Shown here piece after piece: positions 16,905 through 57,737 of a stretch of DNA of 64,000 nt. Positions within the stretch are counted from its first letter, which is position 1; each line of letters begins with the position of its first letter. Position numbers and translations under genes: made by a program. The stretch lies in the NCBI GenBank assembly GCA_965287045.1, contig OZ336876.1, positions 3,410,001-3,474,000 on the forward strand, written 5' to 3'. This stretch comes from Carcharhinus amblyrhynchos (lineage: Eukaryota). The notes beneath the pieces are model-generated. The model worked only from the letters and a program-made list of their open reading frames with translations, had not been told where the DNA came from and searched no databases.

Positions 16905-18232
16905 CCGACACACGCATTAAGCTGCATGGATTCATGAAGGGGAAGTTGTGTTTGATGAATTTACTGGATTTTTATGAAGATGTGACGAGTGCAGTTGACA
17001 GAGGGGAACCGATGGATGTGGTGTTTTTTGAATCCCAGAAAGTGCTCGATAAGGTGCCTCACAAAAGGTTGCTGCAGAAGGTTAGGGGACACGGAGTTGG
17101 GGGTAAAGTGTTAGCGCGGATTGAGGATTGGCTATCTAACAGGAAGCAGAGAGTTGGAATAAATGGGGTTTTTTTTCTGGTTGACAGTTGGTGACTAGTG
17201 GCGTGCCACAGGGATCGGTGCTGGGGCCTCAACTGTTTACTATATACATAGATGATTTGGAGGATGGGGCTGAGTGCAGGGTAACAAAATTTGCTGATGA
17301 CACGAAGGTGAGTGGAAAAGTGAATTGTGTGGAGGACGCAGAAGATTTGCAGACAGATTTGGATAGACTGAGTGAATGGGCGAGGACCTGGCAGATGGGG
17401 TTTAACGTTGGCAAATGTGAGGTTATCCACTTTGGAAGAAACCATAGTAGGATGGAATATTATTTAAATGGTGAAAAACTGCAGCATGCTACTGTGCAGA
17501 GGGACCTGGGGGTCCTTGTGCATGAATCACAAAATCTCAGCCTGCAGGTGCAGCAGGTGATCAAGAAGGTGAATGGAATGTCGGTCTTTATAGCGAGGGG
17601 ATAGAATATAAAAGCAGGGAGGTCTTTCTGAAACTGTACAAGGCACTGGTGAGGCCGTAACTTGAGTACTGTGGGCAGTTTTGGTCCCCTTATTTGCGAA
17701 AGGATATATTGGCCTTGGAGGGAGTACAGGGATGGTTCACCAGGCTGATACCGGAGATGAGGGGGATAGCTTATGAGGAGAGATTGAATAGACTGGACCT
17801 GTACTCGTTGGAGTTTAGAAGGCTGAGGGGGGATCTCATAGAGACTTACAAGATAATAAAGGGGCTAGATAGGGTAGAGGTGACGAGATTCTTTCCACTT
17901 AGAAAGGAAACCAGAACTAAAGGGCACAGCTTCAAAAGGGGTGGGGGGGCGGGAGGCGGCAGTTTAGAACAGAGTTGAGGAAGAACTTCTTTTCTCAGAG
18001 GGTAATGAATCTCTGGAATTCTCTGCACATTGAAGGGGTGAAGATTATCTCGTTGAATATGTTTAAGTCACGGGTCGATAGGTTTCCGATTGACAGGGGA
18101 ATTAAGGGTTATGGGGAGAAAACGGGAAAGTGGAACTGATCCACTTCAGATCAGCCATGATCTTATTGAATGGCGGGACAGGGTCGAAGGGCTAGCTGGC
18201 CTACTCCTGCTCCTATTCCCTATGTTCCGATG
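16905..18232 (+). mobile_element. CR1/HER1 LINE, 5'-truncated (RT domain plus 3' UTR), inactivated
   Basis: GVPQGSVLGP, KFADDTK, VQRDLGVLV, RRLRGDLIETYK; stops and frameshifts; tail ctattccctatgtt. Confidence 0.95.
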
Positions 18233-22468: not shown

Positions 22469-22600
22469 CTATGAATGTCGTGGAAGATTCGCGTATACAC
22501 CCCCTTCTTCATTTTCATTTTCTTGAACAGTATTTTCATTGTTCCTGTGGTTCAGTGTGGCATATGTGATGCAATAGTCTCCCTCGTCCTTCTTGTTATC
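22469..22600 (-). CDS. Gene A terminal coding exon (DNKKDEGDYCITYATLNH...EEGGVYANLPRHS*)
   Basis: Acceptor ttctttaatttcag, phase 0; ITIM ITYATL, GVYANL, TAG stop. Confidence 0.85.
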   Translation of the reverse strand, partial: DNKKDEGDYCITYATLNHRNNENTVQENENEEGGVYANLPRHS

Positions 22601-25600
22601 CTGAAATTAAAGAATATAAGGTCAAATGGGTCTCTCGAGTTTGCACGAAATGCGCTGGGGTCCATAAATGCAGCATTCATTTGAGAAGTGTCTGAGGTTA
22701 ACCAAGGCCCAACTTCACGACGCCCAATTACATGGCAAACACCGCATGAGTGTCCAAAATTATCATCTTCAAGGCAGAATGTAGGAATATGATATGGTAA
22801 AATCTAATGCCAAGAGGAGTGCAACTCCAACAGCATTCAAGAAATTCTACACCATCCCGTAAAAAAAACCCCTGCTTAGTAGCAACCCATCGGCCATCTT
22901 GAAGTTGCATTAACACCATATAGGGGTTCGCAGCGACAGCAGTTTCTATCTTTTGCATGGTGCACTGCGGAGAGTGACCGAATATTCTTCTACAGGACCT
23001 TCTAAAATTCAGAACAGTCTCCACTTGGAAGAACAAAAACGGCAGATGCATGGGAATACACCGGCCTCATGCACCCACCACCCCCACCCCCTGCTCCTGT
23101 TCTAACACCAGGGTCTCATGGACCTATATCGCCATTCATTCATAGTCGCCCTTTCAAAATTCTAGAGCACCCTCCCTAACAGTACAACGTGTGTACCTGT
23201 ACCGGATGCATGACAGTGTTTCAAAAAGGAAGCTCGCCACTACAATCAGACTTTGTGATCGGCAATAATCATCGGCCTAGACCACAAGACCCCGGACAAG
23301 ATTTGTTTTAATAAAAACACGCACAGGCTAAATGTCTTCGGCAAACAAAAACATATAAACCGATTAGTCACATTGGGAAATAAGTGGCAGGTGGATTTTC
23401 AAACTGTTAAATGTGGGGTGATACATTTTCGAAGGAGTCAGTTGCCACAGAAGTTTTCAATGAATCACAAAACACTAGGAAGTGACGAAATATGGGACCT
23501 TGGTGCGTTTGTCCATGAACCTCTGAAAATGGAAGGGCATGTTAGCAGGGTGGTGTAAAATGAATATGGGAAATTTGTCCTTATTTATTGATGAATAGGT
23601 CACAAAAAATGCAGAGGTATGGCTGGAGTTTAATAGGATTTTGGAAAGGCCAGAACTGGAGTAATGCCTACAGTTTTAGTGGTCAGATTATAGGAATGAT
23701 ATGATTACACTGAACGGCGTGGAGAGCAAACTCACCTGCATGTTGCCCGCGATGGAACATTTATGTTATGAAGAGAGGTTGGATAGACTCAGGTTGCTTT
23801 CGTTGGAGTAGACAAGACTCGGAAAGACCAGGTCAATGTGTACAACACTATGAGGAGCATGGACAGGATGTACAGCGAGTTGTTGTTCCCTGAGTTGAAG
23901 TGTTATTCGCGAGGAGACTCAAGTTCAAGGTGAGGAGTAGGGAGTTTAGGAGGGATGTGATGAAAACATTTATTTTACCAAGAGGGTGTTATGGCCTAGA
24001 ATGCACTGGCCGGGAGGGTGGTGGAGGCGCATTGCCACACATCCCTTAAAAGGTACCTAAACCAGCAACATTATAGGACATGGATCAAGTGCTAGCAAAT
24101 GAGGTTAGGTAGGTTAGGTGATACTCACATGCCAATGCAGACTCGATGAGCTGAAGGGCCTTTCCTACGTTGTGTAGGAAAGTAAGAAAGTAGGTCTACA
24201 TCGTAATGTACATGACCCATTTTGATGTTCCCCATCTGTTCAGGGAATATTTCTGAGGAAAACATTTGGAAGTGACCTTCAACATCATGGCAGCAGTTGT
24301 GCAAAATTCATGAATTGAGATGTTTAATGCTGCAAGTGTTCGTTCGAAAGCGCCTGTCTAACCAGTTACTTCGTCAGACTATTAGAACAAGGTCAAGAGC
24401 TGCAGAACAATGCTGCCGCATGTAAGTTCCTCTTCAAATCCAACCATTCACCCACCGGCATTTTATAGCCGTGCATTTTGATTCTCAGAACTCGTTGTCC
24501 ATCGGCACTTTGGGTGCGCTGGAACATGGATTGCATTTAATCAGGAAAGTTTCCTAACTTCACAATCAACAGGTCAATTAGGAACAGGTTGTAAGTATGT
24601 TCCATGAATTAATGATATGAATAATAAGCATTTCAATTTTCACGCTCAAACTATGAGAAAAACGCCTATTAAAAATAATAAAAAATGAACTTTTAAAGGG
24701 AGCCAAACCTCTTTGGATCATGAGTCTGTGCTAACTAATGACAAAGGACTTTTTTTTCACTTTGGAACGCCAGACAAGCTAACCATTTGATCCATTAGGG
24801 GCTGCGATCAATATTTGTAATTAAAGGGCGACGTTGATAACAGTGTAAGCCATGTTGCATTACTTTGATTTTTTTTCAGGTTTAAAATTGCCTTTGGCGG
24901 AATCAACCAAATTAATTTTGGCTATATTTTGTTACGTATGGAAGTTTTGAGCTCATGTAATGATCTCAAATTATTTGCACATTGAATATACTGCCGTTGT
25001 TGAAAATAATTGTCTTCATTTTTGCAAGTGGAACATACATGACTGCAGGCATTCTGCTGCTGTTGAAAACATCACAATATTTTGTTTTCCAATGTGCGGG
25101 CTGGTTGTATGTGTGTTTGTGTGTATGTGTGGGGGAGGGCGGTGGGGGGTGGGGGGGGGCGGGTAAGTGCAGGAGCGTTGCTGGTGAGGAATAATGGTTG
25201 GGCGGGTGGTTTTGGTGGGCGTGTTGTTCATTTGCGGGATAGGTTTTAGTTGGACGATTGCAAAATCTGATGCCCATGTGCTCGCCTTAAGGCCAACTGT
25301 TCAAGCTTCAACTGTGATACGTCCGTCTTTTCATCTGAATATTACTGACCTGTTTCCCTCGTGCAGTGCCGCTGCTGTTACCTGCCAGGGAGAAAAAAAC
25401 AGAAGCATTTTAAACTGGCCGCCTGGGTATGTTGGAGGGGAAGAATAAATTTTCATGGAAAGGGAATGTTTCAAATCTATCCAGCCCTTAAAAAAAATAC
25501 TGGGTTGACAAAAATGTATACTACTCCCCATTGAGGTCAGGGCAAAGTGCATTATGTTGAGGCATGATGTACACCGGGCCAGCATCACTCTTGGTTATTG

Positions 25601-28600: not shown

Positions 28601-31600
28601 CGTGTGGAATGGACTGTGTGCTGTGATAGTGGAGTTGGACACTTTAGGAACGTTCAAGCGGTGATTGGATCGGCACATGGAGCACACCAGAACGACAGGG
28701 ACTGGGATAGTTTGATCTTGGATTTGGACATAGCTCGGCACAACGTCGAAGGCCAAAGAGCCTGTACTGTTCTATGTTCTATGTTATGAAGGCAGACATA
28801 ATGCAGAGTTTCAGGAGGAACACTCCAGCAGACATTTCTATGATACACCTTGACATATGTGTTCTACCCTCAATATATGCATGGAAGTTGCTGTTTTCCA
28901 ATACGGTGCCTTCTTGAATTGCAAATTCAAATTAATTTTCACTTTACCATCTGGACAGAAAACCTGCAGATACCTTTGGGGCACCCAATGTCCACTGCGC
29001 GTTGTTTTACATCTAGAGGACGTGAAATTATTCACTGCACTCCCAATCACTTTGCATAACTGTGAGATTTTTAGCGCAGTCAGCAATGTTCCAATTTTAG
29101 CTTCGTGTTCCTGAATGGACTGCAAATTTATTTTGTGGGAAGCATTCAAACTTGTGGAACTGCAAATATAATCCCACTTAACAGCGGTTGTAAAAAAAAA
29201 TAAGTTACCGGCGCTGCTTGACTTTGTGATCTTGACAACTGCATAAACCAAGCCAGCATCTGATTCTGTCGTATCTAAATAGTTGGATTCAGAGACAAAG
29301 CAAACATAAGGAAGTGGCCTTAACAAGAATCAAGAATCAATATAGTGGGCCCGATTGAGAAACAAAAGGGGAAATGGTTAAGCACATATCTCCTGCATAT
29401 ATAGATACATTGATGTTTACAAATAAAACCAAATATGCAGAGTGATTAGGATAAGTGAATAGGTGACAATAATAAACTATGATGGTACATTGCTATTCAT
29501 TTGTTTAATAGGCATGAGTAAGACATTTCATTCACTTTTATAAACAGTGGTGAACATATTTTTCCACTCTCAGTGACCATGAAGGCAACACCTATAGAAA
29601 TAAAATAATTTCTTCTTGAGCTTTTTTATGCTAATTCATTCTCAGCTTTTTTTAAGGAATTAATATAAAAATCGTTTGCTGCAACAGATGTAATTGAATC
29701 ATCACAAGAAAAAAAAATCTATTCAAACAGACTATGCTCTGGGTCCCCAGAACATATACATGCCTGCAGCTCTGATTGTATTATGTAAAATAGGCTATGT
29801 TTGCTAAATGTACACGTTATTTTCCTGCAACTACATGGATTGAATGATACCTTAAGTATATTATCGTTGCGTTGATTTAATACACCCTCGTTATCCTGAT
29901 TAATTACGCTTAAGCACATCGTAGGCCTGTAAAGCACACAGCAGGGAGACATATTTGCAGTATCTATGACAATGCTACTTGTAAAGAGGTGAAATTACCA
30001 GGAAGTAATAGGGTGCTTCATTATCAATGGTCCCTGCAATACATAACTCTAGTATGACCTGTCAGATGTCGTCTCCTGGAGTCACATGAAAGTCATGTTT
30101 TTCTTTCCCAAGTAGTTGATCACTCGTGTAAGGTATAGCAATGCATATCAAGCAGGAAACAATGAAGGTTTACCTTCTGCAGCAGGAGGCTCATTTACTG
30201 TAGAATAAGTCGGCTGGAATTTTCTTGAATCTAAAGAATTCAAAGAAAAGGGCATTGTTTAATTGAAGATCGAGGTACATAATGAAATATTTAAGTAGAA
30301 GGCATATAAAAATTCAGTACTGGAGGTTATTTATACCTGTGTTTACCAAATTAAAAATCCAATGCCTGATCCGCCTGACGGAATTAATATGTGGGCAATT
30401 CTATATTTAAAGGGACATCATCGATGTGCCTTGGATTATTAGGGCGAGATGGATCTGTATCAAAACATTTTATTCCAAGTGATGTACTCTAAAGACTGGT
30501 TGTATCGCAGTGTCATGCGTTTGGGATTCAAATATCAGGTGTTGGTCAATATTCTGCATTGCTCTTTTCCTTAATGTACTTGCAATGTCCATTTGGAAAG
30601 AGAATCAATAATCTTTAAGTGCTCAAGATATTGATTGTAATAGTTGATTATCAGCGTCCTTTACTGTGACCATGGAGGAGCATCAAGAGAGCCAGTGCAT
30701 ACTAATTTCTCATCAGGTCCAGATCACATAAAAAACGTGATCATAAAACGTGTTTCATAAAAAAACGAAGAATGATGAAATGCAACATTTTTTTGAAAAA
30801 AAAATGAGGAGAGGGACAGAGCAGCAATTTCATCTAAATGTCGGCTACAAAAACTATAGGAAACAAATTCAGCAAGTGCACACTTCATTTCTTTGTAAAT
30901 ATAACCCTACTTGTGACATGAATAAATAAACGTTAAACTTGATGCTTACTGGTATTTCGGCATTTTCTAACAACTGCATATTCAAAGTTGCTGGCCGACG
31001 TTTTCTCGCCACAATATTGATGTATATTTCCAGTTGTATCACTTTGAACGAAAGATATTCGGATATTAGCAAATAATTCATTAATACGCTCAATTGCTAT
31101 GCAGCAGAATGCAGTTGGAGCAGAAAAGAAACTTACGCGAGGGAGATAAAGGAAAGTATAAATAATTCAATGAAGAATACGCATTTGTTCAACACTAATC
31201 CATCGTGGCGCACTACTGTTAGTACCACAATGTTTATTAGCAAGCTATCTTGCTTTTTAAAACACATAGTAGCAACTTCAATCACCTATGAAATAAAAAC
31301 GCGAGAGGTTCCATCAACTCTCTAATCGAAAACCGATGTCCCCCAATTCGCCTCTATATTGCTTTCAAATACTGTCAAACTAATTCTACTATTACTGATG
31401 TACTTCCTGGAGATCACATTCTCAACCTCCTACTTCCGCGTCCTTTGCCCCCTCGACGCGTTTAACAATCTTAAAACGCTTCATTCCTGCTAATATTTAT
31501 CCTGCTGTTCCAAGGACTTCTGCCTCATTTTGTTGAAACATCCTTAAAAATGAAGTCGTTAGTTCCACATAAGATGCCAGTAAACTTCTGCTGTAACCTT

Positions 31601-34600
31601 TTGCGGCATTTAACAGCTCCCGTGATGTGCAAATGCAGAATTAACCATGATAGGCAGCAGTTGCGTACATATTTGCTCATCAAGTTATATCTTGATTGAT
31701 TTGTATTTATATTGAATGCTTGCCCTTATCGGTGAAATGATTTAAGAAGATTAGTAGCCCGACGGGCAGATCATCAGAGCAATGTTTAGGGTTAGCAAAA
31801 CTTCCCTGATAATCGTTTTTTTTCCAAATTGTATGATGCACAATTTACCATCTTTATTTCTTAGTTGCCTCAATATTCACCATTGCGTTCAGCTCCACAT
31901 TGACATCCTTCTTCCTATTCCTGTTTATGCAATCGTTATCTCTATGCGCCTTGCACCCATCTAATCTGTGATCACTCAGTATTTGCTCCTCATATATTGA
32001 AATACATTCGCATTTAATGGATTCCGGATTCACTATTTGATTCGAAAAATAAATTATCCAGGAACTGTTAATTATGCGTTTGCACATCACGGGAGCTGTC
32101 AAATGCCGCAAAAGGTTACAGCAGAAGCTTACTGGCATCTTATGTGGAGCTAGCGACTTCATTTTTAAGGATGTTTGAACAAAATGAGGCAGAAGGCCTT
32201 GGAACAGAAGGTTAAATATTAGCAGGAATGAAAAGTTTTAAGGTTGTTAAACGCCTCGAGGGGGCAAAAGACGAGGAAGTAGGAGATTGAGAATGTCGTC
32301 TCCAGCAAGAACGTCAATAATGGTAGAATTAGTTTGACAGTAGTTTGAACATGAGTGATGATCACTCATCAGGAACACCACTACAGATCTTTCGCCATTA
32401 TGTCTCCGCTGCGCTATTCAGGGGCATTCAAGGTGAATTACTGGATGAATATTTCCAACCTCTGGATTTACCACGCGGACTAGCATGACATTCACCCCTT
32501 TACAAGTTTATGATTTAAACAGCTGGATGACTTACCGTAGTTGTGGGGAATTGTTGGAGGAACTGTCTGCATAAAACAAGAAAAAAAAAGTCAGAAATTG
32601 GGGCAGTGAATACATTTGCTTGACACCTTACAAATGGTTTCTTCATCTGGTAAGTAAATATTAATCTTTTAAAAAAAAATTGAATTGTAGAACAGCTAAA
32701 GTTAAGCATTAAGGAACAGACCGACGACTGTAGGATCCATCAAACATCATGCTGGCATCACTTCAGTGACAAAAAAGCTTTGAATTTAACTGACGAATTA
32801 GCCCCCANNNNNNNNNNNNNNNNNNNNNNNNNNNNNNNNNNNNNNNNNNNNNNNNNNNNNNNNNNNNNNNNNNNNNNNNNNNNNNNNNNNNNNNNNNNNN
32901 NNNNNNNNNNNNNNNNNNNNNNNNNNNNNNNNNNNNNNATCAGGGCAAGACGTTGTGGTTCAAAAATCCGGATAAGCATGAAGTATTGATGGACGCTAAA
33001 GCAGGAATTTTGGTCGGGATACATAATTAAATGTAAGAAATGCACAGTATACATATTGACGTACTGTTTGGGGTAGGCGTGTGTGTGTGTGTTTGTGGGG
33101 GGGCGGCGGCGTGGGGAGGGGCGAGGTGGTTTGCTGGGGTGTGGTGCAAATGGACGAACTGACTATACATATAATCAAAATGCCTCCGGCAAGCAGATTC
33201 TACCCATGATATTGCTTTTATTATTCTTGCTGGCCTTATATGTTGCTAATTAGCATGTAACAGACCATTGAAAGAATATGCACCTCCAATTTCATCAAGC
33301 TATTCAGTTAACTGAAATCCTTTCTGCGTGTGTTTTAATTTATTTACATTGGTCTTAAACCCTATGTCCAGAATTGTACAACACACCCCAGTTGAGTGAG
33401 AGTCATTTTAATTTCATATTATGATTAATCAAAACATACAGAAAATGCCAATTGTTATCTTGAACTGCTAGAGTCAATGACATCTCAAATTTAAGTAATC
33501 CTTCTCTCCATTCCTGCACTCCTTTTAAACCGTACCCTTTTAATTCCGATTACTTCTTCTTGCTTATACTCCCAAGAGGTAACACAGCATGCCAATTTGC
33601 CAACAGTAAATCTGAAAGGCCAAGGCTGCATCCATTACAGTAGCCTGTAAATATCCTGTTTTGTTTTCATCACTGCATACTGAACAGCTCGGAAACATTT
33701 AGGTTAACTGTAATTTGCAAAGAAGAAATTGTTCCGTATACAATCAATATTAACCTTGTCGGTCTGCTTCAAGGAAAGCACTATTCCAATTACCAATTCT
33801 AAGATGATGTGGAACAAAATCCTCAAAATTCAAATATAATCCATGTTCTTTTTTACCCAGCTCCCTGATATAAGCGGATATTTCATTCCAAGCGTTTAAA
33901 TTTGTGGCGATTGGTTAGATTCCCTCTTGTGAAGTTCACCATATTAACTACGCAACCATAATTAATCCCTCAGTTTTCCACACGAAAAGTTAGATAAGTA
34001 TCCCTCCTCCTTAGCAAATAACTGCTCATGGTTTTTTTAATTATTTCAGACTTGAACAAGTTTTTTGGTCATAAATTCCCAGGATTATAATTTAGAAAAA
34101 AAACATTACGAACGACGACAAACTGACTGGTTTGGTTCTGCTGGCTTTACCTGAGCTTTTTCTGCTTTCCGTTTTAAAAGTGTGTAACAATTGGATTTTT
34201 TGAAACCCCTATCACCAGTCCTTCATCTAACAATGACAGAAAGGTTATGTGCAATGGTTCCACCTTTTCCTCCTGTAATCTATAGAGAGCTCATCATTGC
34301 TTCCAACTTTCCCAGTAAATTAACCATATTAAGTAATACTAGGTTTTCATTAGTAGCTGTTTCTGGATTAATTTGTGTCGGGTCAAAGTCCCAACTTCTC
34401 ATCTAGCATTGTGATTAATGATCCATGCATTCTGGAAAAGTATGACATCGATACCCTGACAGGAAAACAAAATCCTTATGTATGATTAATGCAAGTGACA
34501 AATGCACACGTGAACGGTGAACAGTGAATCAATCTGACGATGACTGTAACCATATATTCCTGTCCAGTAGCATTACACGGCAGGAAACGTAAGTTCTCTA

Positions 34601-37600
34601 ACACGCTGAGCGATTGCTATGCAATTTGTCTCCGCTATTTAATTTCGGCTTCAAAAGTAGTCCATGCGAGATTTGTCGGTTGTCGCTCGCCGCTCGCCCT
34701 GATATAAAGTTGCTGAAAGAACGAAAATTCCTAAAATGATCCCTCTACTCTTGATCGCAATTCATGAATGTATCCATTCAATAGTCGGTTGGCAGGACGG
34801 AAGTTGAACGTTGCTGAATTGAAGTAAACGTTGCCTCCATTTTAAACATTGTATTCACCAGGATAAATACAAGAATACCAGATTTCGGAAGATAAGAACA
34901 ATCTGTACGACACAAACCAAGAGTACTCTGGCAAGGCAGTTTCATTCTGTTTGGCCGGCTCATTGCTGGTCAGAACGGACATAGATACATAAATAACAAC
35001 TGGTTCCCTGAAAAGAAATAAATATTTCGAAACCATGCATTTTTTTTTAATTTCGGGCTGTTTTCTCCATCGTGACACTAGTGCCATTCAAACCAAAATT
35101 GTCAACCAATAGGTGCCCTTTATTCCTGTCGTACAAATTATTGAGTCACCTAAATTTGGGATTCGAGTGTTTGTCCGAGTGAGTGCAAAATTGGAAAGCT
35201 CAGGTGAAATGTTTCGCTGCTCAGCAACATTAAAATCATTGAAAGCAAACGGCATGTTGTTCGATCTCACAACTTTGCATTGCTATAGAAAGTCAACCTG
35301 TTAGATATATTGTGCTATCGCTGAACATTGAACGGACTGTTGAGTATGAACCCCGCCTCCACGGCATTGCTCACCTTGATTCGCCTTTCTCCGTTCGTAG
35401 CTTAAGCATGCAAGCAGGGCAATGATAAGAAGGAGTGGAATAACTGATGTGGTGATGGCAGCTGTATGGCTCTGTGCTGGATTTAAATAGGGATATTTGA
35501 TGAACAATATTATACGCCCCAGAAATCATACACTCCATCTGAAATTTAATTACTATGCATTAATGATTCACTCGCTTTCGGCTACAGTTCATCAATATTT
35601 AAATACTAATCCCTGGAGAAGCAAACTGTACAGTCACTTATTGCAAAACCATCGCTTCTGAACAGGTAAACCCCAGATGAAACATATTGTAAAAATCGTG
35701 AGGGGACCACATACCAGGAGCGCGTTAGGGCCAAGTGATATGACAACCCATTTACTAATAAGAGTACGTTGTTTATAAGGAATTCTCTCTCTCTCTCTCT
35801 CTCTTACTCTCTCACGCAGACTCTCTCTCTCTCTCTCAAATCATTGTTAACCAGAGAATGATAGAAATTACACAACAGAGAAGGGAGCCACGATTCCCTC
35901 CGTCTTGCCCGTACCGACTTCAAAACAACCGGGTGCCCTTTCTGATCTCAGTTTCCTGCATATGGCCCATAATCCTGCGAATTACGGCAGTTAAAATGCA
36001 AATCCATGTCCCTATTAAACTATTTGACTAATTAGAGCATCTGCTTCCACCACCAACTGAGGCGGCAACTTCCAGACATCAACAACTCACTTGTTAACAA
36101 AATGTTTCCTCGCGTCCCCTTCAATCCTTCTGCCACGTGGCTTAGATTTCTGATAACTCTGCAAAGAGAGACAGGTTCCGTCTCTTCAGTGTGTCTCTAA
36201 CACATTCACAGTTACTAATACCTCAATCATGTCAATGCTCAGCGCTCTCTTTTCTAAGGAAAACAACTCTCAGCTCTCCAAGGTCTCGGCTTCGCTATGT
36301 TTGTCCTACCGTGGCAACATTCCAGTAATTTGTTTCTAAACTCTGGAGTAACTCATGTAAGGTGGTGACCGGATCTACATGCCATACTCCAGTTGTGATC
36401 TCATGAGTTTCTTATGCAGTTCCGTTCTTACTTTTGTATTCTATACCTTTTGAATGATGACGATCATTCCGTGTGCATTCTTGTTCTTAAATAGAATGCT
36501 CTCCCATGCAAACCATGGAGTATTGAATTCGCTGAATGCAGAGTTTTCTTTGACATGGGGATCAAGGGTGATAGGGGAGGAATAGAAAGGTGAGGTCAGA
36601 AAACAAAAAAATCTGTCTTAAATCTGTTGAATGTCAGTGCAAACTTAAAAGTAGCCAATCTCCAAGCCCTGCTTCTAAATCTGAGGTCTGAGGTTTGCTG
36701 CGTTGTATTCGCGTTGTATCTACTCTATGCTCTCTCTCTCTCTCTCTCCCCACAACTTCTCTGTTAATTCAGATTTTGAAATTTGCTAGGTTATTGCAGA
36801 TGCAGTAATGTCTTACAAAATAAAATCCACATGAGCAATGTTACTCATTCGTGATCAAATATGATTTCCATTTTGAATTGTATGTAAAGGGGATTCATTA
36901 AGCTATGCTTCTGAAAGAAATGTGCACATTACAGTCAAATCGTCCTACTATAATTTCCGGGTACCTGATACTGTGATATCTATATAATTGCTAGTTGTGT
37001 TAAATATCTCTTCATCGGGTCCTCTGTTCATCGCTACACAGAAATATCGCCCTTTGTAGCGTATCTGGAATGAATGAATATTCAGCTGACTCCCGTCTGT
37101 GCTGAAATTATGATGTTCACTGATGTTTTCCAGCTGCTGATGGCCCAGGTACCAAAAGAACTGGGGAAATGTGCCTTCCTTCAACTGGCACTGCATAACG
37201 AGAGGATCTCCCATTGAAATTTCAGTTTTGTTCATGTTAGAATTAAGAACAGCTCCACCCACAGGAACTGAAAGAAAGCAAACAGTTTCGAAGTTAGAGA
37301 AATAAATCACCATCAACATCGGAATGAAAAAGTCATGTTGTGTGTTAAATGACGTTAAATCGTTCGAATTCATTTGAATGCAGCAGAAATGTGCAATTGG
37401 CTTATCAGTCCTGAGAATCGGGCTACTGTTCTGGGGAAGTGGGTCCAGAGCCTTTTTCTTTAATTCACTGAAGAGAATTGGGCATCACTCATTAGGTCAG
37501 AATTTATTACCCATCCCTTGTTACGCTGACAAAGATGGTGTCACTTTTTTATAATCTTACAATAGACGTCAAGATCTGAGTCAAGGTTTGTTTACAGCTC

Positions 37601-43600: not shown

Positions 43601-46600
43601 GGATAACTCAAACTCAGATTATAACTATTTATCACTAAATTTAGACACACACTCCAAATTTCCTAATGCTCTTAATGCAGCAGACTGGATGACCACACGT
43701 TTCGTTTAGAAATATATCTGGCTGTTGTCTGTCCCTACCAAATTGTATTAATTGTAAATAAAGAGTTGACTGTTCTTCACCGGTACCCACGTTTGGAAAA
43801 CGCCCATTCATTATCCTGACTCTTCTAATAGATGCAATGTATTATTGGTGTATCCTGATTGTGGGCAAATCGACGCCCAGGACGATTGCAAACTCAACCA
43901 TTTTCATGTCGCACTTCACATCATGCAATTTTGGGTTTGACTTTGGATGAGTCAGGGTACATGAGAACAGTGGCATGCGAAGGAGCAGAATTCACAACGG
44001 CTGCTTGATCTCCTATCACATTGTCAAAGTTACCAGAACGTGGCACAATGGTAAGCACTGCTGCCTCACATCGCCAGGTAGCCGGGCTCAATTCCAACCT
44101 TGAGTTGGGAGACTGCTTGTGCATAGTTCGCATGCTCTCCCTGTGTCTACGTGGGTTTAGAACAAAGTATAAAGAAAGTTACAGCGCAGGAACAGGCCCT
44201 TCGCCCTCCAAAGATGCACCGATCATGCTGCACCGACTGAGGAATACTCTCCTCCCTTGTGGGGACAATATCCCTCGATCCCCATCTATTCATGTATTTG
44301 TCCAGACGCCTCTTTAAAGTCACTATTGTACCTGCTTGCACGACCTCCCCCGGTTGCAGGTTCCAGGCACCCAGCACACTCTGTGTAAAACATCTGCCTT
44401 ATACATCTCCAACAGACATTTCCCCTCGCATCTTAAGCTTATGCCACATAGTAATTGGTTCTCCCTTCCTGGGAAAAAGGCTCTGAATATCCATTCTCTC
44501 CATGCCCCTCATAATCTTATAGACTTCAATCAGGGAGTCCCTTAACCTCCGTCATTCCAATGAAAACAAATCAAGTTTCTCCAACTTCTCCTCATAGCTA
44601 ACGCCCTCCACCCCAGGCAGCATCCTGGTAAATCTTTTCTGTACCTTCTCCAAAGCCTCCACACCCTTCTGGTATTGTGGCGACCAGAATTGAATACTAT
44701 GCTTCAACTGTGCCGGTTTCCTTCCAAAGATGGTTGTATTAGGTGAAATGTCCATGCTATATTGCCCCTTTGTGTGCTAACAGTGTAGAAAGTAGAATGA
44801 TAAATGGGAGAGCGTTTGGTGTAGGGTGCATTGTCGCCTGGGCAAGATGCTCTGATGGAGAATCGGTGCAGGCTCAATGGGCACAATGACCTCCATTTGC
44901 GCTGTAAGGTTTCTAAGGGTTCTATGAAATGAAATAAACACCTGTACTCCTGTCTTTAGCATACACAGGAACCGTGTCAGAAACCTTGATTGCCACAATG
45001 TCCTGACGAAAGCTATTCGCCCAGCTTTCTTGTGGTACTTGTTTTCATTTCTGTCAAAGTGAGGATTAATGTTGCTGCAACACAAACGCTACAAATTGTT
45101 TTCAATTCAATACATGTCGAATTGCCTGAGTATATTTAATGCTGAATCTGTTTGAGCAGAGTTTTCAGAAGATAAACCAAAGCGTCTGGGTGTCCAGCAT
45201 CATTGATTGTTCTACAGATAGCTTTTTTTAGAAGTACACTTCCCTTCCTATATCTCTCCAATGCCTATTCTGTTCAGTGAAGGTGCACTGATTTCACTAT
45301 GCATGACTCTTCTAGGCACTTACTAATGGGGTCCCAAGGGGACGTTTACAGTTATAATTAATATAACCTTGTCGAAATCGATTTAAAAGTAACTTTTTTC
45401 CATTACTTAGGCCGCTTGCGATAATAGACATCAGAACAAATCAGAAGGGATACAATTGACCAACCTGTTACGGTGATGTATACATCCTTGGAGATACACG
45501 TTCTATATGTTGTTTTGAATTTACAGTGATATGATCCTCCATCTGAATGCTTTGCATTTTCAATGCTAATCTGATTGTCATGCGTCTGTCGCAAAAATGT
45601 ATTATTTTGATACCATTCGAAAGTATGATCTATCCCTTCCAAAGAAGGATTCAGATATTCCAGGACAATACTGTCCCCTATCAGTGCGTGTTGCGGTGTT
45701 ATTTCCAGAGTTATAGTTGTATCATAAGCTGCAAGAGATGCGAGAAAACCAGACGTAAATACAAATTAGAATATTGCAAATGCCACTTCTCAGATATATA
45801 ACAATTAAAAAGTGAGCTTACACTGAAACAACCAGGGCAATCAGCATCATTTCGTTAGTTAACACCAAGCTATCATCTGAAAAAGTTCTATCAGCGTTTA
45901 GTGATTCAGAAAATTACCCTTTATATGGTTGTCTGGCATGAATCATAGAAGCATACAGTCCCCATAGTACAGAAAAGAGGCAACTCAGTCCATCATATCT
46001 ACACTAAGCCTTCGAAAAACAAACCAACCCAGGTTCTGCCCTTGGCTATATACCTGTCAATCTGTGTATTTTACCGTGACTTATCCATTTGATTGCACAT
46101 CGATGGACTGCAAAAGCAATAGATCATGGTAAATCCTTCTAACCTTCACATCTTTGCATGATGGGAGAAAACCCACCAGAGACGGTGAGAAAGGGCAAAT
46201 TCTACACAGACACTCATTCAGTTCCGGCATCAAACCGGCCCGTACTACTGTGTGGCAGTAACAGAATGACGTATATTGTCCTTTAGCTTATATGTAAACC
46301 AAGACCAAACGCAATCTTTTCCAAATAAACTTCGTGGGATCAAGATATCAATATTTAGATGAATGAAATAAACCAAATAATTTTTTTTCCCAGAATAGGA
46401 AATATTCACAGTTTTCCGAATTCTACTCTTTAGCCCAATTAACATAAGCTAACTGGGTGTTCTTAGCTCCTGGTGCCGGTCAAGGAAACACATGACTTTC
46501 CAGAATTCACACCACCATGGCCTTTTCTCCGGGACTGCACTAGAATCCTATTTGGTCTCTTAAGAAGATACAGCACTCCACTTCCAGTTAAATTAGGATG

Positions 46601-49600
46601 TTGGCCTCAGGAAAAGCCCCAAAACAATTTCGAGGTTTTTTTTGGCTGACATTATCTGTTAATAACACTTATCTATTTATTTCATCTGACCATTCACTGA
46701 TGTTTCAAAGATGCAACTTGCGCGCACACCACATGAAATCCCTTTTTACTGTTCTACAAAACCGCAGTTTCTTTTCCAGTTGATCTGCATCGTTGTATGA
46801 GGCTGGAGTGTATATGTTAGGCATATTACACCCTTACCACTACAAAGGAAAGGCAGTAATAAATTAGGCGTTTATTTCTTTCAGCAATGGAGTAAATGTG
46901 GAAACACGTCAAACAGAATATATAACTGAAAAATGATTTGATCTGAAGCCTAGCACTGAAAAGTAACGTCATCTCTGTGTGGTATAATTTTGCCTCAACC
47001 AAAGTCAAGTCTCCTTTAATGGATCAGCAGCTGGTTTCAAGCTTACTGCTGACATTTAAGTAATAATATAACCAACCATGATCCTGCCTCGGGCAGTTAG
47101 ATTTTAACTACTATGCTGCCTCAGTGAATAAAGAAATCAATTTCTGGCTATGCTGCAGCATCATTGAAACAAACAAAAACTCCTTCGGATTGCAAATGAA
47201 CCATATAGCAAATAGAGTGTTCATAACATTAGAAATCCTTCTAATGCTGTACTTTGGTATTAGACGACCAAAAGACACAGTGGTCTAAAATGTTGCAAGT
47301 TATTATGAATGCTTCAATGTTTCTGACAAATGAATGTCAAATCCACGTAGGACCAAATGTAAACATACCGATTTTTATCTAACAATTGGAATGTGTAACA
47401 ACTCATAAGGTTTTCGTACCGATAGTGGCCACACTTAGAGGATTACTTATCACGGAGTGTTTCCAAAACTTTACTTCGCACTGGTAAGACCCTCCAGTTT
47501 CAAAGTTTGCGATTCCTGAAATGTCTTTACGAGTAGTTTGAATTATTTTGCCACCTTTATACCAAAAGGCAAGTCTGTATTTGCTTCTATGCATACACTG
47601 CATTTTGAATTGTTCCCCTTCTTTTAGGGCTCCACCTCTGGGAAACATCATTATTACTTTGGGGCGATATGCTGCAAAAAGACAATGACAGTCATTGTTG
47701 TTTCGAATAACAGGAGATATTGTTTACACTATCCACTACAGGCAAATGTAGATGTACACCTCCACTCGTTTTTTAGAATCGAATAGAACATCGAATAGAA
47801 TCTCAATAGAACATCGAACAATCAAATGGTTCTATTTGGGGGAGGGTTTTAAAGGGATGCAATCCCGGGGTAGCGGGGAAAACCAACATGTAGGAAATAT
47901 CGAAGTACGTCGCATTGCCATCAACTATCCAGCATTTGACATCAATTTTCAACCTACAAACTGGCTTTAATGAAATGCATGGATGTCTCTTTCCTTTTGG
48001 AATCGATCTGAAAATGGTGTGCTTCATGTATGACCAACTGTCTCACCACATAAGTTTTGATAGAAACGGTCATGTAGAAGTGGGGTGCATCGTTGCCTGG
48101 TGGTTTAGAAGGAACCAGAAGACACTTCTGATACGGCGAGAAGAAAAGCGTATCTATGCCATCTTAGACTTGCCTGTTGTAGGATTAGCAATAGCTGGAA
48201 TTCGGTTATTCTGGACATACATGTGCCAATTTTGATTAGGCTTGCATCCGGAAATCAAAATTAAATCCTGACAAAACAGCCATTAATCCCACTACGACTC
48301 CAGCTGCTGGCTGTTTGGACCGTATACTGGCAGTCGAGATTAACAGTCGCCAAATATCACTGCTAATTAAGTAATTTAATAATCAGTTTTAGCTATGTCA
48401 TCCAATGAAGACACATTTTTGTCTTTTTTTTCTGTTCATTAGATGTAGACAACATATATAGTTAAGCCAACATCTGTTGCCCACCCTTGACTGTCCTTAA
48501 TATTCATTGAATTCTGAGCCTTTCGCGGTATAAATATAAGTCAGCCAAATTCCGTGAGATCTGGACTCAGTTAGGCCAGAGAGCGTAAGGACGGCAGAAC
48601 TTTCTTCACTGAGTAACATCGGTGAACCAGATTTTTTGTAGCAACAGCTGTTAGGGATGTTATTATATAAAAGATGTCATGTGGAATGTTGAATTCCCAC
48701 TTCACTGCTTAATTTTGGAGGATTTATTTTATTATTTATTGGTGGGGCATGGGCGTCGCTGGCTGGCCAACATTTATTGCCTATCTCTGTTGAGCTGCCT
48801 TCTTGGTTCTAAAAACAAGTGGAGGTGTGCATCTATATTTGCTGCTTTCTTGATTTGCTGCCGTCCCCTGTCACCAAATAACTAACCTGGGCCTCAGGAT
48901 TTATAATCTAGATACATGCACTGTTTCCCATTGTTTTTCCACCCATGGTATTCTTCTCAAATGCAATGCCTTGACACCTTGGCTTAAGCCTAATGGTCGA
49001 ATTGGTATTCTTCAAAGAAATTTCAATTTGAATTCGCATTTCTGTAACAATAGCGACAACTTTACATACGTTTTGTAAACTGTTACTGTTTCATTATCTC
49101 TACCGTTTACCTACGCACTAGCAGCGATAATGTTATCGGTAATGAGGATTATGTGGCTCGTGATTCTGCAATTCTCCCTTCTCCTACACATTCAAGTCAA
49201 GTGAAAACGTTCTTGCGGGAAATATCACTGGAAGATACGTATCATTTCCCTACTTCGATGCGAGTAAAGGTGAATATCAATGGCTCCAGCCTCCCAACTC
49301 CACCATAAATCTCCTCCCTGAAATATGCACTTACACAAACACCAAAATCACCCCCTCTCCCACAATAGCACTACCAGCAGATTAGATTCATTGATATGAA
49401 CTGAATATTGCAAAGTAATATTATAGTTTTATTATACCTTTTATGCTCTGGAGACGAGAACTTGCTACTGTAAAAGAGAATGCAAAGTCACACTGTGAGT
49501 CTCGTATTAACGATGAACTATGCACAATGCTATAAATGAGCTGCTGAACATTCAGAAAGGTGGAATTCGATAAGTCACCTGTTCCCCAAAAGCTGCCTCC

Positions 49601-55600: not shown

Positions 55601-57737
55601 ACACACACGGACCACAACTAACCGCCCCCCCCCCCCCACCTCAATGCTCTATCTGTCTCCGTTTCTCTCTCTCCATTTTTCTCTTTGTTTTATTTTCCTG
55701 ACTCTTATTATTTCGCCCTCTGCATACTTCCCTGTCTCTGTCTGGATGTCTGTGTTTCTGTCTCTATTTTTCCCTTTCTTCATGTATTTTCTTTCTTTTT
55801 TACGTGATAGCCTGATGGTTGCATATTTCACTTCCTTCATCTCGATACAGCTAATACCCCTTGGCCTCTTACTTTCATTCTGATGCGCATTCCCTGTCTC
55901 GTCATATGCCTGGCTAATTCTCTCCGACTGTCTCTCTACATGTCCAATGTCCCCTGATACTCTTTCCATAAGTCGAGTGACGAACAATGTTTCACCTTAT
56001 ATTTGTGTTTTTATTGGATTTTCTGTCTCTCCACTTGTTCCAATATTTCACGATTTTTTAAAAAAAGTGGCAGATTTGCAAAGGCAAGACTCTCTTTGGC
56101 ACATGTCATCATAAAGCTAATTAAAAAAATACGAGATATACATTGTTCAGAAGTAACCACAAATTGTGAAACTCAAAAGAATGTAATAAAGGGGTTATTG
56201 TTACCGTGACCATTGAGACAGGCTGACTTTCAAAGTAATGCATAAAATTGTTAACGTTATCAAATTTATAGATGACAAAAGGGCATCATTGTTTTCTCTG
56301 CCAAAGAGAACATTGATTTTGCTAATAATCATCAATCTACTTGCAGCTTGTTTTCATCCTAGAATAAGGGAACGCATCTCTAATAATCAATACTTTCCTT
56401 TTTTTCCAAGGCATTAACCTGCTAGTATACTGAACCGAAATATAGCAATTATTGTGTTTTAATTATTCTATCGATTGTGGACATTGCTATCACCCACAAC
56501 TGGTCTTGTGAATGTGCTGGCCAATCACGTTGTTGCATCGTGGCGGAGGATATGCCCTTTCTTTAGTTGTCCTGTAGAATTAATTGGCTTACCACATCTG
56601 GTTGGTGATCTGGCGAGATCAAGTGGGGAAAGTATCTTTTTTTTCTTTTAATTTTTAGTTATGTGCAGATAAAAGGAGTTTCATCCAAGTAAGTGTGCAA
56701 GCGGGCATAAAATGTCAGCTGCGGCTTAACTTGGATAAATGTGAAGATATCCCCTTCAGAAAGGAAACAGAATGACAGAGTATAATTTTAACATTATTAT
56801 AATTCGTTCGAAAAATCGATATACACTACGGCATGGGTTTCCTTTACTATCAGTCGCAAAAACCAGGCATGAGCAATCAGCTAGGAAGCCAACTAGTACG
56901 CTGGCATTTTTTTTCCAAGAAAACTTCATGTACAGCAGCAAGGCTGCCTTCAAATAGATGCACAGGTTTTTGGCGCGTCCACATCTGGAGAATTGACTGC
57001 CGGTTGCTTCTCCTTATCGAAGAAAAGATATATTTTACAACGAAGGGATGCACCGAGTGTTTAACAAACTGAATTATTGGATGGCAGTACTGTCAGATGA
57101 GGAGAGCTAAAATCGGCTAAACCTTTACTCACTGGAGTTTGGGAGAGTGGCAGGCGATCTCGTTGAAACGTGCATACTTCTAAAAGGGATAGTAAGACTG
57201 GACGCAAGAATGTCAGCCATCACTATATTAAATAGCAGAGCTCACTCGGGATACCGAATGGCGTATTCTTGCCCCTACCTTTCAAAACTTTATGATCTAT
57301 GGCGTAACTTTCCAAAACATCGTAGTTCTATTATATTCCCTGAATACGTCAGTAGAGCAGGTGTGATTACAAGCACATTTGGCAGTTTCGTGATAAGGTC
57401 AACCGATGCTAATTATATTCTATTTCTAGATTTACCAATTGACCAGTTTTAAATTATCACAACTGTGACATGAACACAGAATTGTGTTCCTGTTTCTTTG
57501 CGTCAGGAAGTTTCTGATTCCGATTCCAGCGCTGTCCCCATTACAAGACACATTTTACTGAATATTCAACGTTAATATTATGTACAAATTAATTTAGCAG
57601 CATCTACAGTCAAGGACGTTACAACACTGATTATTGTCAGTTTTGAATTTCGCTAAGTATTATCATTAATTATAAAAGGATATGTTTTTCATTCACTTAC
57701 AGATTATTAGAAGTAGGCAACAATTGGTCATGTTCAT
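22469..57737 (-). CDS. Gene A: FCRL/PECAM1-like type I transmembrane receptor, 5 Ig domains, ITIM-bearing tail (14 coding exons, 1965 nt, 654 aa)
   Basis: All 14 exons have GT/AG boundaries and compatible phases (lengths 37,30,252,264,279,288,303,102,31,92,57,66,32,132). They join into one ORF: signal peptide, 5 Ig domains, TM, tail with LVYAVV and ITYATL, TAG stop. Confidence 0.85.
22730..23290 (+). mobile_element. Decayed CR1/L2-clade LINE 3' fragment; related reverse pieces near 19710-20060 and 21285-21560
   Basis: gtgcaactccaacagcattcaagaaattctacaccatcc resembles the SAAPTTLKKLDTIQ-type LINE C-terminus. Confidence 0.55.
23340..24175 (+). mobile_element. Decayed CR1 LINE 3' portion
   Basis: KWQVDF..KCGVIHF, DLGAFVH; 3' UTR gcagactcgatgagctgaagggcc. 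Confidence 0.8.
25350..25381 (-). CDS. Gene A cytoplasmic exon 5 (GNSSGTARGKQ)
   Basis: Acceptor ttttttctccctggcag, donor CAG|gtcagt; 32 nt, phase 1->0 as required by the last exon. Confidence 0.75.
25815..28788 (+). mobile_element. Near full-length CR1/HER1 ORF2 (APE endonuclease plus RT), frameshifted, antisense in a gene A intron
   Basis: CIYFNARSIRNK, YRPPNS, GNFNFPNIDW, GNYRPVSL, QHGFVRGKSC, FDKVPH, KFADDTK; tail tgttctatgttctatgtt. Confidence 0.95.
29209..29274 (-). CDS. Gene A cytoplasmic exon 4 (DTTESDAGLVYAVVKITKSSSA), ITIM
   Basis: 66 nt, phase 1-1; LVYAVV matches the ITIM consensus I/V/L/S-x-Y-x-x-L/V. Confidence 0.82.
30174..30230 (-). CDS. Gene A cytoplasmic exon 3 (NSRKFQPTYSTVNEPPAAE)
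   Basis: 57 nt, phase 1-1, acceptor ttctttag, donor AAG|gtaaac; YSTV motif. Confidence 0.75.
30950..31041 (-). CDS. Gene A cytoplasmic exon 2 (DTTGNIHQYCGEKTSASNFEYAVVRKCRNT)
   Basis: 92 nt, phase 2->1, restores frame between the flanking exons; donor gtaagc; FEYAVV Tyr motif. Confidence 0.72.
31364..32349. repeat. Inverted duplication, arms ~31364-31646 and ~32067-32349
   Basis: Arms are reverse complements, e.g. ccacataagatgccagtaaacttctgctgtaaccttttgcggcattt versus aaatgccgcaaaaggttacagcagaagcttactggcatcttatgtgg. Confidence 0.93.
32536..32566 (-). CDS. Gene A cytoplasmic exon 1 (DSSSNNSPQLR)
   Basis: Long poly-T acceptor ...ttttatgcag, donor gtaagt; 31 nt, phase 1->2. Confidence 0.75.
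35375..35476 (-). CDS. Gene A transmembrane exon
   Basis: AQSHTAAITTSVIPLLLIIALLACLSYERRKANQ: hydrophobic stretch without charged residues followed by basic stop-transfer RRK; donor gtgagc. Confidence 0.88.
35860..36490 (-). mobile_element. Decayed CR1 3' fragment
   Basis: Reverse-strand CR1 tail and RT C-terminal remnants. Confidence 0.7.
36965..37267 (-). CDS. Gene A Ig domain 5 exon
   Basis: VPVGGAVL...GDPLVMQCQLKEGTFPQFFWY...GRYFCVAMN...SNYIDITVS; 303 nt, phase 1-1. Confidence 0.92.
37920..38207 (-). CDS. Gene A Ig domain 4 exon (FCRL D4/D5- or PECAM-type)
   Basis: IPVSKPDL...GEAVTLTCSVSTGSFPIKYVFFH...EGNYSCIVSN; 288 nt, phase 1-1. Confidence 0.92.
40016..40294 (-). CDS. Gene A Ig domain 3 exon (FCRL D3-type)
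   Basis: DLCSPPLLKVDP...GQQLNLIC...LLYSFFNN...DSGNYQCE...KKLSNVVSVLVK; 279 nt, donor gtgagt. Confidence 0.92.
41505..42450 (+). mobile_element. CR1/HER1 LINE 3' fragment
   Basis: SKFADNTK, WQMKFNPDKC, QRDLAVQVHRSLK, TRGHRFKVRG. Confidence 0.92.
42870..43250 (-). mobile_element. Penelope-like element, decayed GIY-YIG endonuclease C-terminus
   Basis: ...IAITYHFN...LRGLQQHINEAQWKLEQQQFAF*..FQPSGLNIELSNF matches the PLE ORF end. Confidence 0.7.
44036..44930. mobile_element. HE1-like SINE (+) split by a CR1 3' fragment (-, ~44160-44705)
   Basis: SINE head gcacaatggtaagcactgctgcctcaca at 44043; SINE body resumes at gccggtttcc ~44712; CR1 ORF SIQFWSPQYQKGVEALEKVQKRFTRM lies between. Confidence 0.8.
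45465..45728 (-). CDS. Gene A Ig domain 2 exon (B-strand Cys replaced by Tyr)
   Basis: AYDTTITLEITPQHALIGDSIVLEY...FEWYQN...DGGSYHCKFKTTYRTCISKDVYITVT; 264 nt, phase 1-1. Confidence 0.9.
47420..47671 (-). CDS. Gene A Ig domain 1 exon
   Basis: AYRPKVIMMFPRGGALKEGEQFKMQC...FWYK...GGSYQCEV; 252 nt, phase 1-1, tttttgcag acceptor. Confidence 0.9.
49438..49467 (-). CDS. Gene A exon S2, 30-nt signal mini-exon (LASSRLQSIK)
   Basis: Acceptor ttctcttttacag, donor AAG|gtataa, phase 1-1; same length as the gene B mini-exon. Confidence 0.75.
49840..50110 (-). mobile_element. HE1-like SINE; related partial copies at ~46000-46260 and ~50810-50930
   Basis: ggaaagcggagcacccgagggaaacccacgcag...ctggcgctgtaaagcaacagtgataaccactgtgc. 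Confidence 0.75.
51059..51610 (+). mobile_element. 5'-truncated Penelope-like element: inverted partial LTR, GIY-YIG C-terminus and pseudo-LTR, 9-bp TSD agtcttagt
   Basis: HSASDLRVSILQ...AEQRLIAKFRTHEDGLNRDLGFMSHYL*; TSD at 51050-51058 and 51611-51619. Confidence 0.9.
51516..51555 (+). ncRNA. Minimal hammerhead ribozyme motif in a Penelope pseudo-LTR
   Basis: attcac-CTGACGA-a-gagg taaa cctc-GAAA-gct-t-gtgagt. Confidence 0.72.
52100..53050 (-). mobile_element. Decayed CR1 RT/3' fragment, preceded by a SINE head at ~51980-52100
   Basis: Reverse-strand remnants of DFSK.FDK.PHG and VLGP motifs. Confidence 0.7.
53420..55470. mobile_element. Nested cluster: CR1(-) split by CR1(+) ~53958-54330 and a SINE ~54605-54935
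   Basis: CR1(-) breaks after cccgaaagcgtcca (~53958) and resumes at taatgtggcgaccagaac (~54947); the CR1(+) reads RRLRGDLIEVYK. Confidence 0.8.
57701..57737 (-). CDS. Gene A exon S1 (signal peptide MNMTNCCLLLII)
   Basis: ATG with an in-frame upstream TAA, hydrophobic core, donor T|GTAAGT, phase 1; mirrors gene B S1. Confidence 0.75.

Follow-up and report, generated by a model that had tools for sequence, protein, structure and literature searches.

A putative inhibitory receptor gene of the FcR/FCRL family in the shark Carcharhinus amblyrhynchos

Introduction

Do cartilaginous fish have genes of the Fc receptor (FcR) and Fc receptor-like (FCRL) family? The question is raised by a stretch of 64,000 nucleotides (nt) from Carcharhinus amblyrhynchos (assembly GCA_965287045.1, contig OZ336876.1, positions 3,410,001 to 3,474,000), hereafter called the window, the positions of which are used throughout. 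An original prediction had placed a complete FCRL-like inhibitory receptor gene at 22469 to 57737. Our analysis indicates that this gene probably codes for a type I membrane protein with five immunoglobulin (Ig) domains and two ITIMs (immunoreceptor tyrosine-based inhibitory motifs), which belongs to the elasmobranch branch of the FcR/FCRL family and acts as an inhibitory co-receptor of leukocytes, likely of B cells.

FCRL genes have been stated to be absent from cartilaginous fish on the basis of shark data from 2014 (PMC4016189). The statement is repeated in a 2026 review (PMC13337447), which asks how sharks manage antibody-linked phagocytosis. A single-cell study from 2024 uses fcrl names for bamboo-shark genes, in B cells. 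As far as examined, neither the RefSeq names nor the 2024 study test the assignment to FCRL in sharks. PMC5278576 mentions only gene ontology terms. There were no matches in one supplement of PMC3964593, and at least 11 matches to "Fc receptor" in one of the four supplements of PMC11372145, of which the two examined are from a bony fish. A literature search that left most subscription journals outside its reach turned up no paper dedicated to the FCRL family in sharks, so that such work may exist.

Gene model and orthologue

An independent rebuild from splice signals resulted in 14 exons on the minus strand (57737 to 22469), which join into an open frame of 654 amino acids (aa). This agrees with the 14 phase-compatible exons and the protein length originally predicted. 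Thirteen exons derived from splice signals code for 644 aa, and the 30-nt leader exon at 49467-49438 completes the 654 aa. Two other candidates for this leader exon (54421-54392 and 49464-49438) were rejected, as they fit the Mustelus orthologue less well. AG acceptors and GT donors flank all internal exons. Exon phases are 1-1 from the leader to the transmembrane (TM) segment and 1-2, 2-1, 1-1, 1-1, 1-0, and 0-stop in the tail. A two-exon leader (37 and 30 nt) followed by five Ig exons, each of phase 1-1, is the arrangement of FcR/FCRL genes; the lengths differ from the stricter pattern of a 30/21-nt leader.

The orthologue is a RefSeq protein from Mustelus asterias (XP_078069577.1, "Fc receptor-like protein 2 isoform X1", 654 aa), which aligns without gaps (550/654 identical, 84%) and which matches every exon, the small ones included. 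It was found in the cluster of the best match to exon 7, in a search that returned four proteins among 19 candidates, all from sharks and named Fc receptor-like. It is a database prediction with an automatic name, and we found no study of it. The two genes agree in length and exon borders; they differ in that the window copy has Tyr for a Cys in D2 and a strongly diverged D1. The exons are as follows (all on the minus strand; bits refer to the domain profiles described below).

57701..57737 (-): exon 1, leader part 1 (ATG; 37 coding nt); GT donor, phase 1; 9 of 12 aa identical to the Mustelus orthologue
49438..49467 (-): exon 2, 30-nt leader mini-exon; top acceptor among the candidates; 10/10 aa identical to the orthologue
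47420..47671 (-): exon 3, Ig D1; Pfam Ig_2, E 6e-5 (below cut-off); 55/84 identical; long branch of its own in the tree
45465..45728 (-): exon 4, Ig D2; Pfam Ig_2, E 2e-7; 33.8 bits D1-type versus 30.7 D2-type; outside the D2-type clade
40016..40294 (-): exon 5, Ig D3, FcR/FCRL D3-type; 53.1 bits versus 29.0 for PECAM1 d4; best in 10/10 subsamples
37920..38207 (-): exon 6, Ig D4, between PECAM1 d6 and FCRL D5 (66.9 versus 55.2 bits); best PDB match FCRL5
36965..37267 (-): exon 7, Ig D5, membrane-proximal type of non-mammalian FCRLs; 67.5 versus 37.9 bits; clade 100/97
35375..35476 (-): exon 8, TM helix (102 nt, phase 1-1) that can be skipped in frame; no D/E/K/R, mean hydropathy 2.6
32536..32566 (-): exon 9, tail 1 (31 nt, phase 1-2); strong splice sites; 8/10 identical
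30950..31041 (-): exon 10, tail 2, Y550 in FEYAVV (ITIM-like, non-consensus); 26/31 identical; weak acceptor
30174..30230 (-): exon 11, tail 3, Y568 in PTYSTV (non-consensus, poorly conserved); 11/19 identical
29209..29274 (-): exon 12, tail 4, Y589 in LVYAVV (consensus ITIM); 21/22 identical
25350..25381 (-): exon 13, tail 5 (32 nt, phase 1-0); 9/11 identical
22469..22600 (-): exon 14, tail 6, Y624 in ITYATL (consensus ITIM), Y647 in YANL (YxN), stop; 34/43 identical

The splice junctions were derived from signals and homology. Two read runs that were examined cover introns and exons alike; they are thus of genomic origin and contain no spliced reads. The junctions are indirectly supported because isoform pairs of relatives (Mustelus, Scyliorhinus) differ exactly at the exon borders of the model: the TM exon is absent from isoforms P0006, P0014, and P0015, the D1 exon is absent from P0011, and P0007 and P0014 read through past the fourth tail exon. 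RefSeq isoforms of this sort usually rest on transcripts. The intron that follows the TM exon contains an assembly gap of 131 bases (32808-32938); as the alignment to the orthologue is gapless, this gap should not hide a coding exon. The window gene is real and intact.

TM-skipped isoforms occur in two shark genera, and some isoforms stop short of the final ITIM and the YxN motif, which suggests tuning by splicing. Skipping of the TM exon would lead to a form without membrane anchor.

An AlphaFold model of the Mustelus orthologue comprises five domains rich in beta structure along with a TM helix, and its tail is disordered. Foldseek with this model retrieved generic multi-Ig proteins with TM-scores below 0.35 by query length, which is uninformative as to the family.

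Cytoplasmic tail and transmembrane segment

The tail has about 142 aa encoded by six exons (exons 9-14). The five tyrosine motifs that had been quoted for it were located at 30989, 30213, 29254, 22573, and 22504, all on the minus strand (span 30989 to 22484). Among the five YxxL/V tyrosines, Y589 (LVYAVV) and Y624 (ITYATL) match the ITIM consensus and the terminal Y647 (YANL) is a YxN motif, in line with the original prediction; Y550 and Y568 do not match that consensus. The claim that the TM segment is free of charged residues also held: exon 8 encodes no D/E/K/R and has a mean hydropathy of 2.6. The protein carries nine N-glycosylation sequons.

Such a tail is rarely obtained by chance. When it was shuffled 20000 times, at least two ITIMs arose in 0.9% and at least five YxxL/V/I motifs in 0.01% of the shuffles. 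Among 19 homologues picked for a full tail (16 of them named as sharks or rays; truncated models excluded), an ITIM is present in 19/19, at least two ITIMs in 18/19, and YxN in 19/19. A charged residue falls in the TM window of three of the 19, each time at most two positions from the window edge. The layout of two ITIMs and a terminal YxN is found in 18/19 elasmobranch-type tails, 12/13 tetrapod tails, and 0/4 PECAM1 tails. An uncharged TM segment together with a long tail that carries YxxL/I/V motifs on separate exons is characteristic of the inhibitory FCRL class. The inhibitory XFL genes of Xenopus are described with a two-exon leader, an uncharged TM segment, and tyrosine motifs on separate exons (PMC2413239). 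The window gene matches this class in all of these points, and also in its phase-1 Ig exons and its long tail.

Domain types and family assignment

All five Ig exons match Pfam Ig models, with D1 below the cut-off. A PDB search with the orthologue gave FCRL5 as best match (E 1.8e-55, a value inflated because the domains repeat). With a profile of nine shark sequences, FCRL5, FCRL4, and Fc-gamma-RI came out on top, in a collinear manner, and a single-exon search with D3 gave only two weak matches. No PECAM-1 entry is among the 60 PDB matches listed for the shark query. To our knowledge, PDB holds only fragments of PECAM-1. Domain profiles were therefore built. Those for PECAM1 d1-d6 were made from 22 proteins, most of them from teleosts, and those for six FCRL domain classes from 9-22 tetrapod domains per class, which were assigned by eye. 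Typing by hidden Markov model (HMM) was repeated in 10 subsamples of equal depth, a CD22-like class with five members being excluded from these. The panels contain neither shark PECAM1 nor MILR1, and the domain alignments are short.

D3 scored best with FCRL D3 (53.1 bits, versus 29.0 for PECAM1 d4), D4 with PECAM1 d6 (66.9 bits, versus 55.2 for FCRL D5), and D5 with the membrane-proximal class from FCRLs of amphibians, turtles, and birds (67.5 bits, versus 37.9 for PECAM1 d6), each in 10/10 subsamples. D1 and D2 proved ambiguous, D2 being weakly FcR D1-like (33.8 versus 30.7 bits for the D2-type).

The per-domain phylogenies against FCRL and PECAM1 that had been proposed as a check were computed. 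In a tree of 70 domains (103 columns), shark D5 forms a clade with the non-mammalian FCRL membrane-proximal class, a paddlefish FCRL, and a zebrafish domain (support 100/97). Shark D3, FCRL D3, and PECAM1 d4 fall into one clade with unsettled internal order, and shark D4 forms a separate clade. The approximately unbiased (AU) test rejected neither a grouping of D4 with FCRL D5 (p 0.127) nor one with PECAM1 d6 (p 0.056). In a second tree (64 domains), eight domains from shark paralogues join the FcR D2-type at 98/95, with D1 and D2 of the window gene outside. The ectodomain is thus composed of FcR-family Ig subtypes as judged by D3 and D5, with D1, D2, and D4 not firmly typed. It has neither the D1-D2 tandem with a D2-type domain, typical for classical Fc receptors, nor the six-domain d1-d6 order of PECAM1; only for D4 is a PECAM1 domain the best match. 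In a BLAST panel of 15 proteins, the top seven are FCRL-named, so that the closest non-shark relatives are FCRL/FcR proteins, within a panel affected by selection bias.

These domain tests place the window gene in the FcR/FCRL family, in what appears to be an elasmobranch branch. The predicted FCRL-like type I receptor with an FCRL-type D3 is thereby upheld. The membrane-proximal domains, which had been called PECAM1-like, are so only in part: D4 scores best with PECAM1 d6, with an unsettled position in the tree, and D5 is of the non-mammalian FCRL type.

Among the known systems, the caecilian XP_030043362.1, the turtle XP_039369031.1, the paddlefish XP_041087892.1, and Xenopus XFL share the D3-type and membrane-proximal domains and the uncharged TM segment with the window gene. 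The turtle and frog proteins also share its ITIM-ITIM-YxN tail, and XFL its two-exon leader (PMC2413239). In contrast to these, the window gene has no D2-type domain, its D1, D2, and D4 are in shark-only clades, its leader exons have 37/30 nt rather than the 30/21 nt of some XFL genes, and its tail has six exons rather than one to five (PMC2413239). Human FCRL5, FCRL3/4, and Fc-gamma-RI, the top PDB matches, are collinear over D1-D3/D4 and have ITIM-rich tails. However, mammalian FCRL3/5 have only about 24-28% identity to the window protein, and the mammalian FCRLs examined do not have the membrane-proximal domain type of its D5.

Homologues were found in Mustelus, Scyliorhinus, Hemiscyllium, Heterodontus, Carcharodon, Chiloscyllium, Stegostoma, and Cetorhinus, and, among rays, in Hemitrygon and Narcine. 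More than one homologue is present in several species; domain numbers vary, and the automatic names range from FCRL2/3/5 to PECAM-like and DSCAM-like. The homologues span sharks and rays, contrary to the published statements of absence.

Proposed function

D1 is a short, shark-specific domain and the fastest-diverging one: 29/84 sites differ from the orthologue, compared to 25/290 in D3-D5 (p 4e-8) and 27/136 in the tail (p 0.017). Its rapid change fits a variable ligand. The ligand would likely be engaged by the fast-diverging distal D1-D2 and may more likely be a non-immunoglobulin molecule, self or microbial, than the Fc of an immunoglobulin. Partners of ITIMs are SHP-1/SHP-2 or SHIP, and the partner of YxN is Grb2. 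Once clustered together with an activating receptor, the protein would be phosphorylated by Src-family kinases at Y589 and Y624, which are 35 residues apart. The phosphorylated motifs would then recruit one of these phosphatases, and Y647 would bind Grb2.

Several points weigh against this assignment and function. All support comes from sequence comparison, and the bamboo-shark fcrl genes of the 2024 study are not matched to the window gene. In the BLAST panel, two mammalian FCRL3s (101 and 94 bits) rank below a PECAM1 from catfish (102 bits). An Atlas query with a catshark homologue gave FCRL-named clusters first, with PECAM-named ones only 0.01 lower, which is not discriminating. D4 scores higher with PECAM1 than with FCRL. 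Much of the non-shark FCRL panel was gathered with shark queries, a bias towards similarity, and the assignment of domain classes was made by eye. One member of the D5 clade, a zebrafish protein, bears a C17orf99-type Pfam domain, so the D5 type of domain may also occur outside FCRLs. Finally, the loss of a cysteine in D2 may impair folding of this allele.

Alternative explanations

The shark gene had also been proposed as a candidate receptor for IgM, IgW, or IgNAR. That it codes for a true inhibitory Fc receptor, like Fc-gamma-RIIB or human FCRL5, would be consistent with its membership in the FcR/FCRL family (PDB profile matches, D5 clade), and the title of a paper from 1988 names Fc receptor activity for shark IgM. 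Classical Fc receptors bind mainly via D2, and the 64-domain tree assigns no D2-type domain to the window gene. A neighbouring paralogue (described below) carries such a domain, so Ig binding is the less likely for the window gene. Human FCRL5 binds IgG via D1-D3, and fcrl-named shark genes are expressed in B cells (2024 study), both of which speak for an Ig receptor; but FCRL5 uses its D2 in two of three contacts with the first Fc (PMC12757038). Only FCRL5 among the six human FCRLs bound IgG Fc; the other five did not bind, and mouse FCRL5 bound neither IgG nor the IgM core (PMC12757038). A conserved Fc would also be a less fitting ligand for the fast-changing D1 than a variable one. We thus consider the candidacy weakened and a true Fc receptor unlikely.

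Could the gene instead belong to a separate elasmobranch family within the FCRL-PECAM1-MILR1-C17orf99 group, nearer to PECAM1/MILR1, and code for an ITIM-bearing adhesion receptor? PECAM1 d6 is the best match of D4 in 10/10 subsamples and of all 11 shark D4-type domains scored (11/11). Pfam Ig_C17orf99 matches D4 weakly (E 0.001, below cut-off), several homologues are automatically named PECAM-like, and D3 is unsettled between FCRL D3 and PECAM1 d4 in the tree. However, D5 joins FCRL domains to the exclusion of PECAM1 d4-d6 (100/97), and its scores with the six PECAM1 profiles are all far lower. In addition, paralogues carry FcR D2-type domains, and the tail layout is FCRL-like. PECAM1 (CD31) itself resembles the window gene in d6 (D4) and shares a clade through d4 (D3), but its d1, d2, d3, and d5 are the best match of no window domain, D5 is unlike PECAM1, and YxN is absent from the four PECAM1 tails. 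A link between FCRL and PECAM1 was reportedly named already in the title of a 2002 paper, so it is not specific to sharks. A family on the PECAM1 side is, in our view, quite improbable.

The B-strand Cys of D2, present in 9/9 aligned homologues, is replaced by Tyr in the window gene (TAT, 45657-45655), a one-base change that may be an allele, an assembly error, or a fixed change. The protein also has extra cysteines: Cys184 in D2, which occurs in the Mustelus orthologue as well, and Cys197, found in 6/9 aligned homologues. That the replacement of this invariant Cys marks a decaying or hypomorphic locus, with a protein that misfolds for want of the D2 disulfide, is very hard to reconcile with an open 654-aa frame, splice sites that are all intact, D3-D5 being 265/290 identical to the orthologue, and the spare Cys184, quite apart from a possible allelic or assembly origin of the single-base change.

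Neighbouring paralogue and other features of the window

Besides the gene described here, the window contains only one paralogue and repeats. The paralogue leaves the window and is represented by the following exons.

1443..1721 (-): D3-type Ig exon, beyond which the gene leaves the window; 72% to Mustelus P0022; 73.7 bits D3-type
4015..4260 (-): FcR D2-type Ig exon; 64% to Mustelus P0022; D2-type HMM best, 41.2 bits
13080..13109 (-): likely 30-nt leader exon, a candidate in the same orientation, downstream of the window gene

The D2-type domain of Mustelus P0022 is inside the FcR D2 clade (98/95). By domain type, the neighbouring paralogue would be the better candidate for Ig binding. The N-terminus of the P0022 model matches 15655-15154 and 6853-6755 on the minus strand, with stops and a frame change, so the 5' end of this RefSeq model is probably wrong.

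An inverted repeat in the intron that separates tail exon 1 from tail exon 2 has arms of 279 nt each (31367-31645 and 32067-32345), which are 91% complementary and 421 nt apart; a hairpin in the pre-mRNA is possible. It is not of high copy number, as its depth resembles unique sequence in both genomic runs. Its interpretation as a duplicated exon (31.4-32.3 kb) was rejected, as no model exon lies inside. Broken reverse-transcriptase-like frames, which we take to be of the long interspersed nuclear element (LINE) type, are found on the plus strand at 26023-28467 and 16871-17975, one of them within the intron that separates tail exon 4 from tail exon 5. High-copy repeats occur at about 41.5-44.7 kb. 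Candidate polyadenylation signals (AATAAA) are at 21063, 21044, and 20724 on the minus strand, 1.4-1.7 kb beyond the stop codon.

Implications

The window gene is a further member of the known FCRL family, and its orthologue is already predicted in RefSeq under that name. Given this prediction and the fcrl names used in the 2024 paper, the single gene is unsurprising. The domain trees provide evidence beyond automatic names for a multigene FcR/FCRL family in sharks and rays, and they point to concrete candidate proteins for the binding of shark IgM, IgW, and IgNAR, with those bearing a D2-type domain first in line. We consider it likely that the ancestor of all jawed vertebrates already had a diversified FcR/FCRL family. 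A more far-reaching scenario is offered tentatively and is rather doubtful as a whole: besides this ancestry, the elasmobranch cluster would have kept a domain that stands between those of FCRL and PECAM1, and would hold an Fc receptor for shark IgM or IgNAR, most plausibly a D2-bearing member such as the neighbour, with the window gene as its inhibitory partner. The evolutionary point at the level of the family outweighs this one gene: an FcR/FCRL family in sharks and rays would shift the origin of the family to the jawed-vertebrate ancestor.

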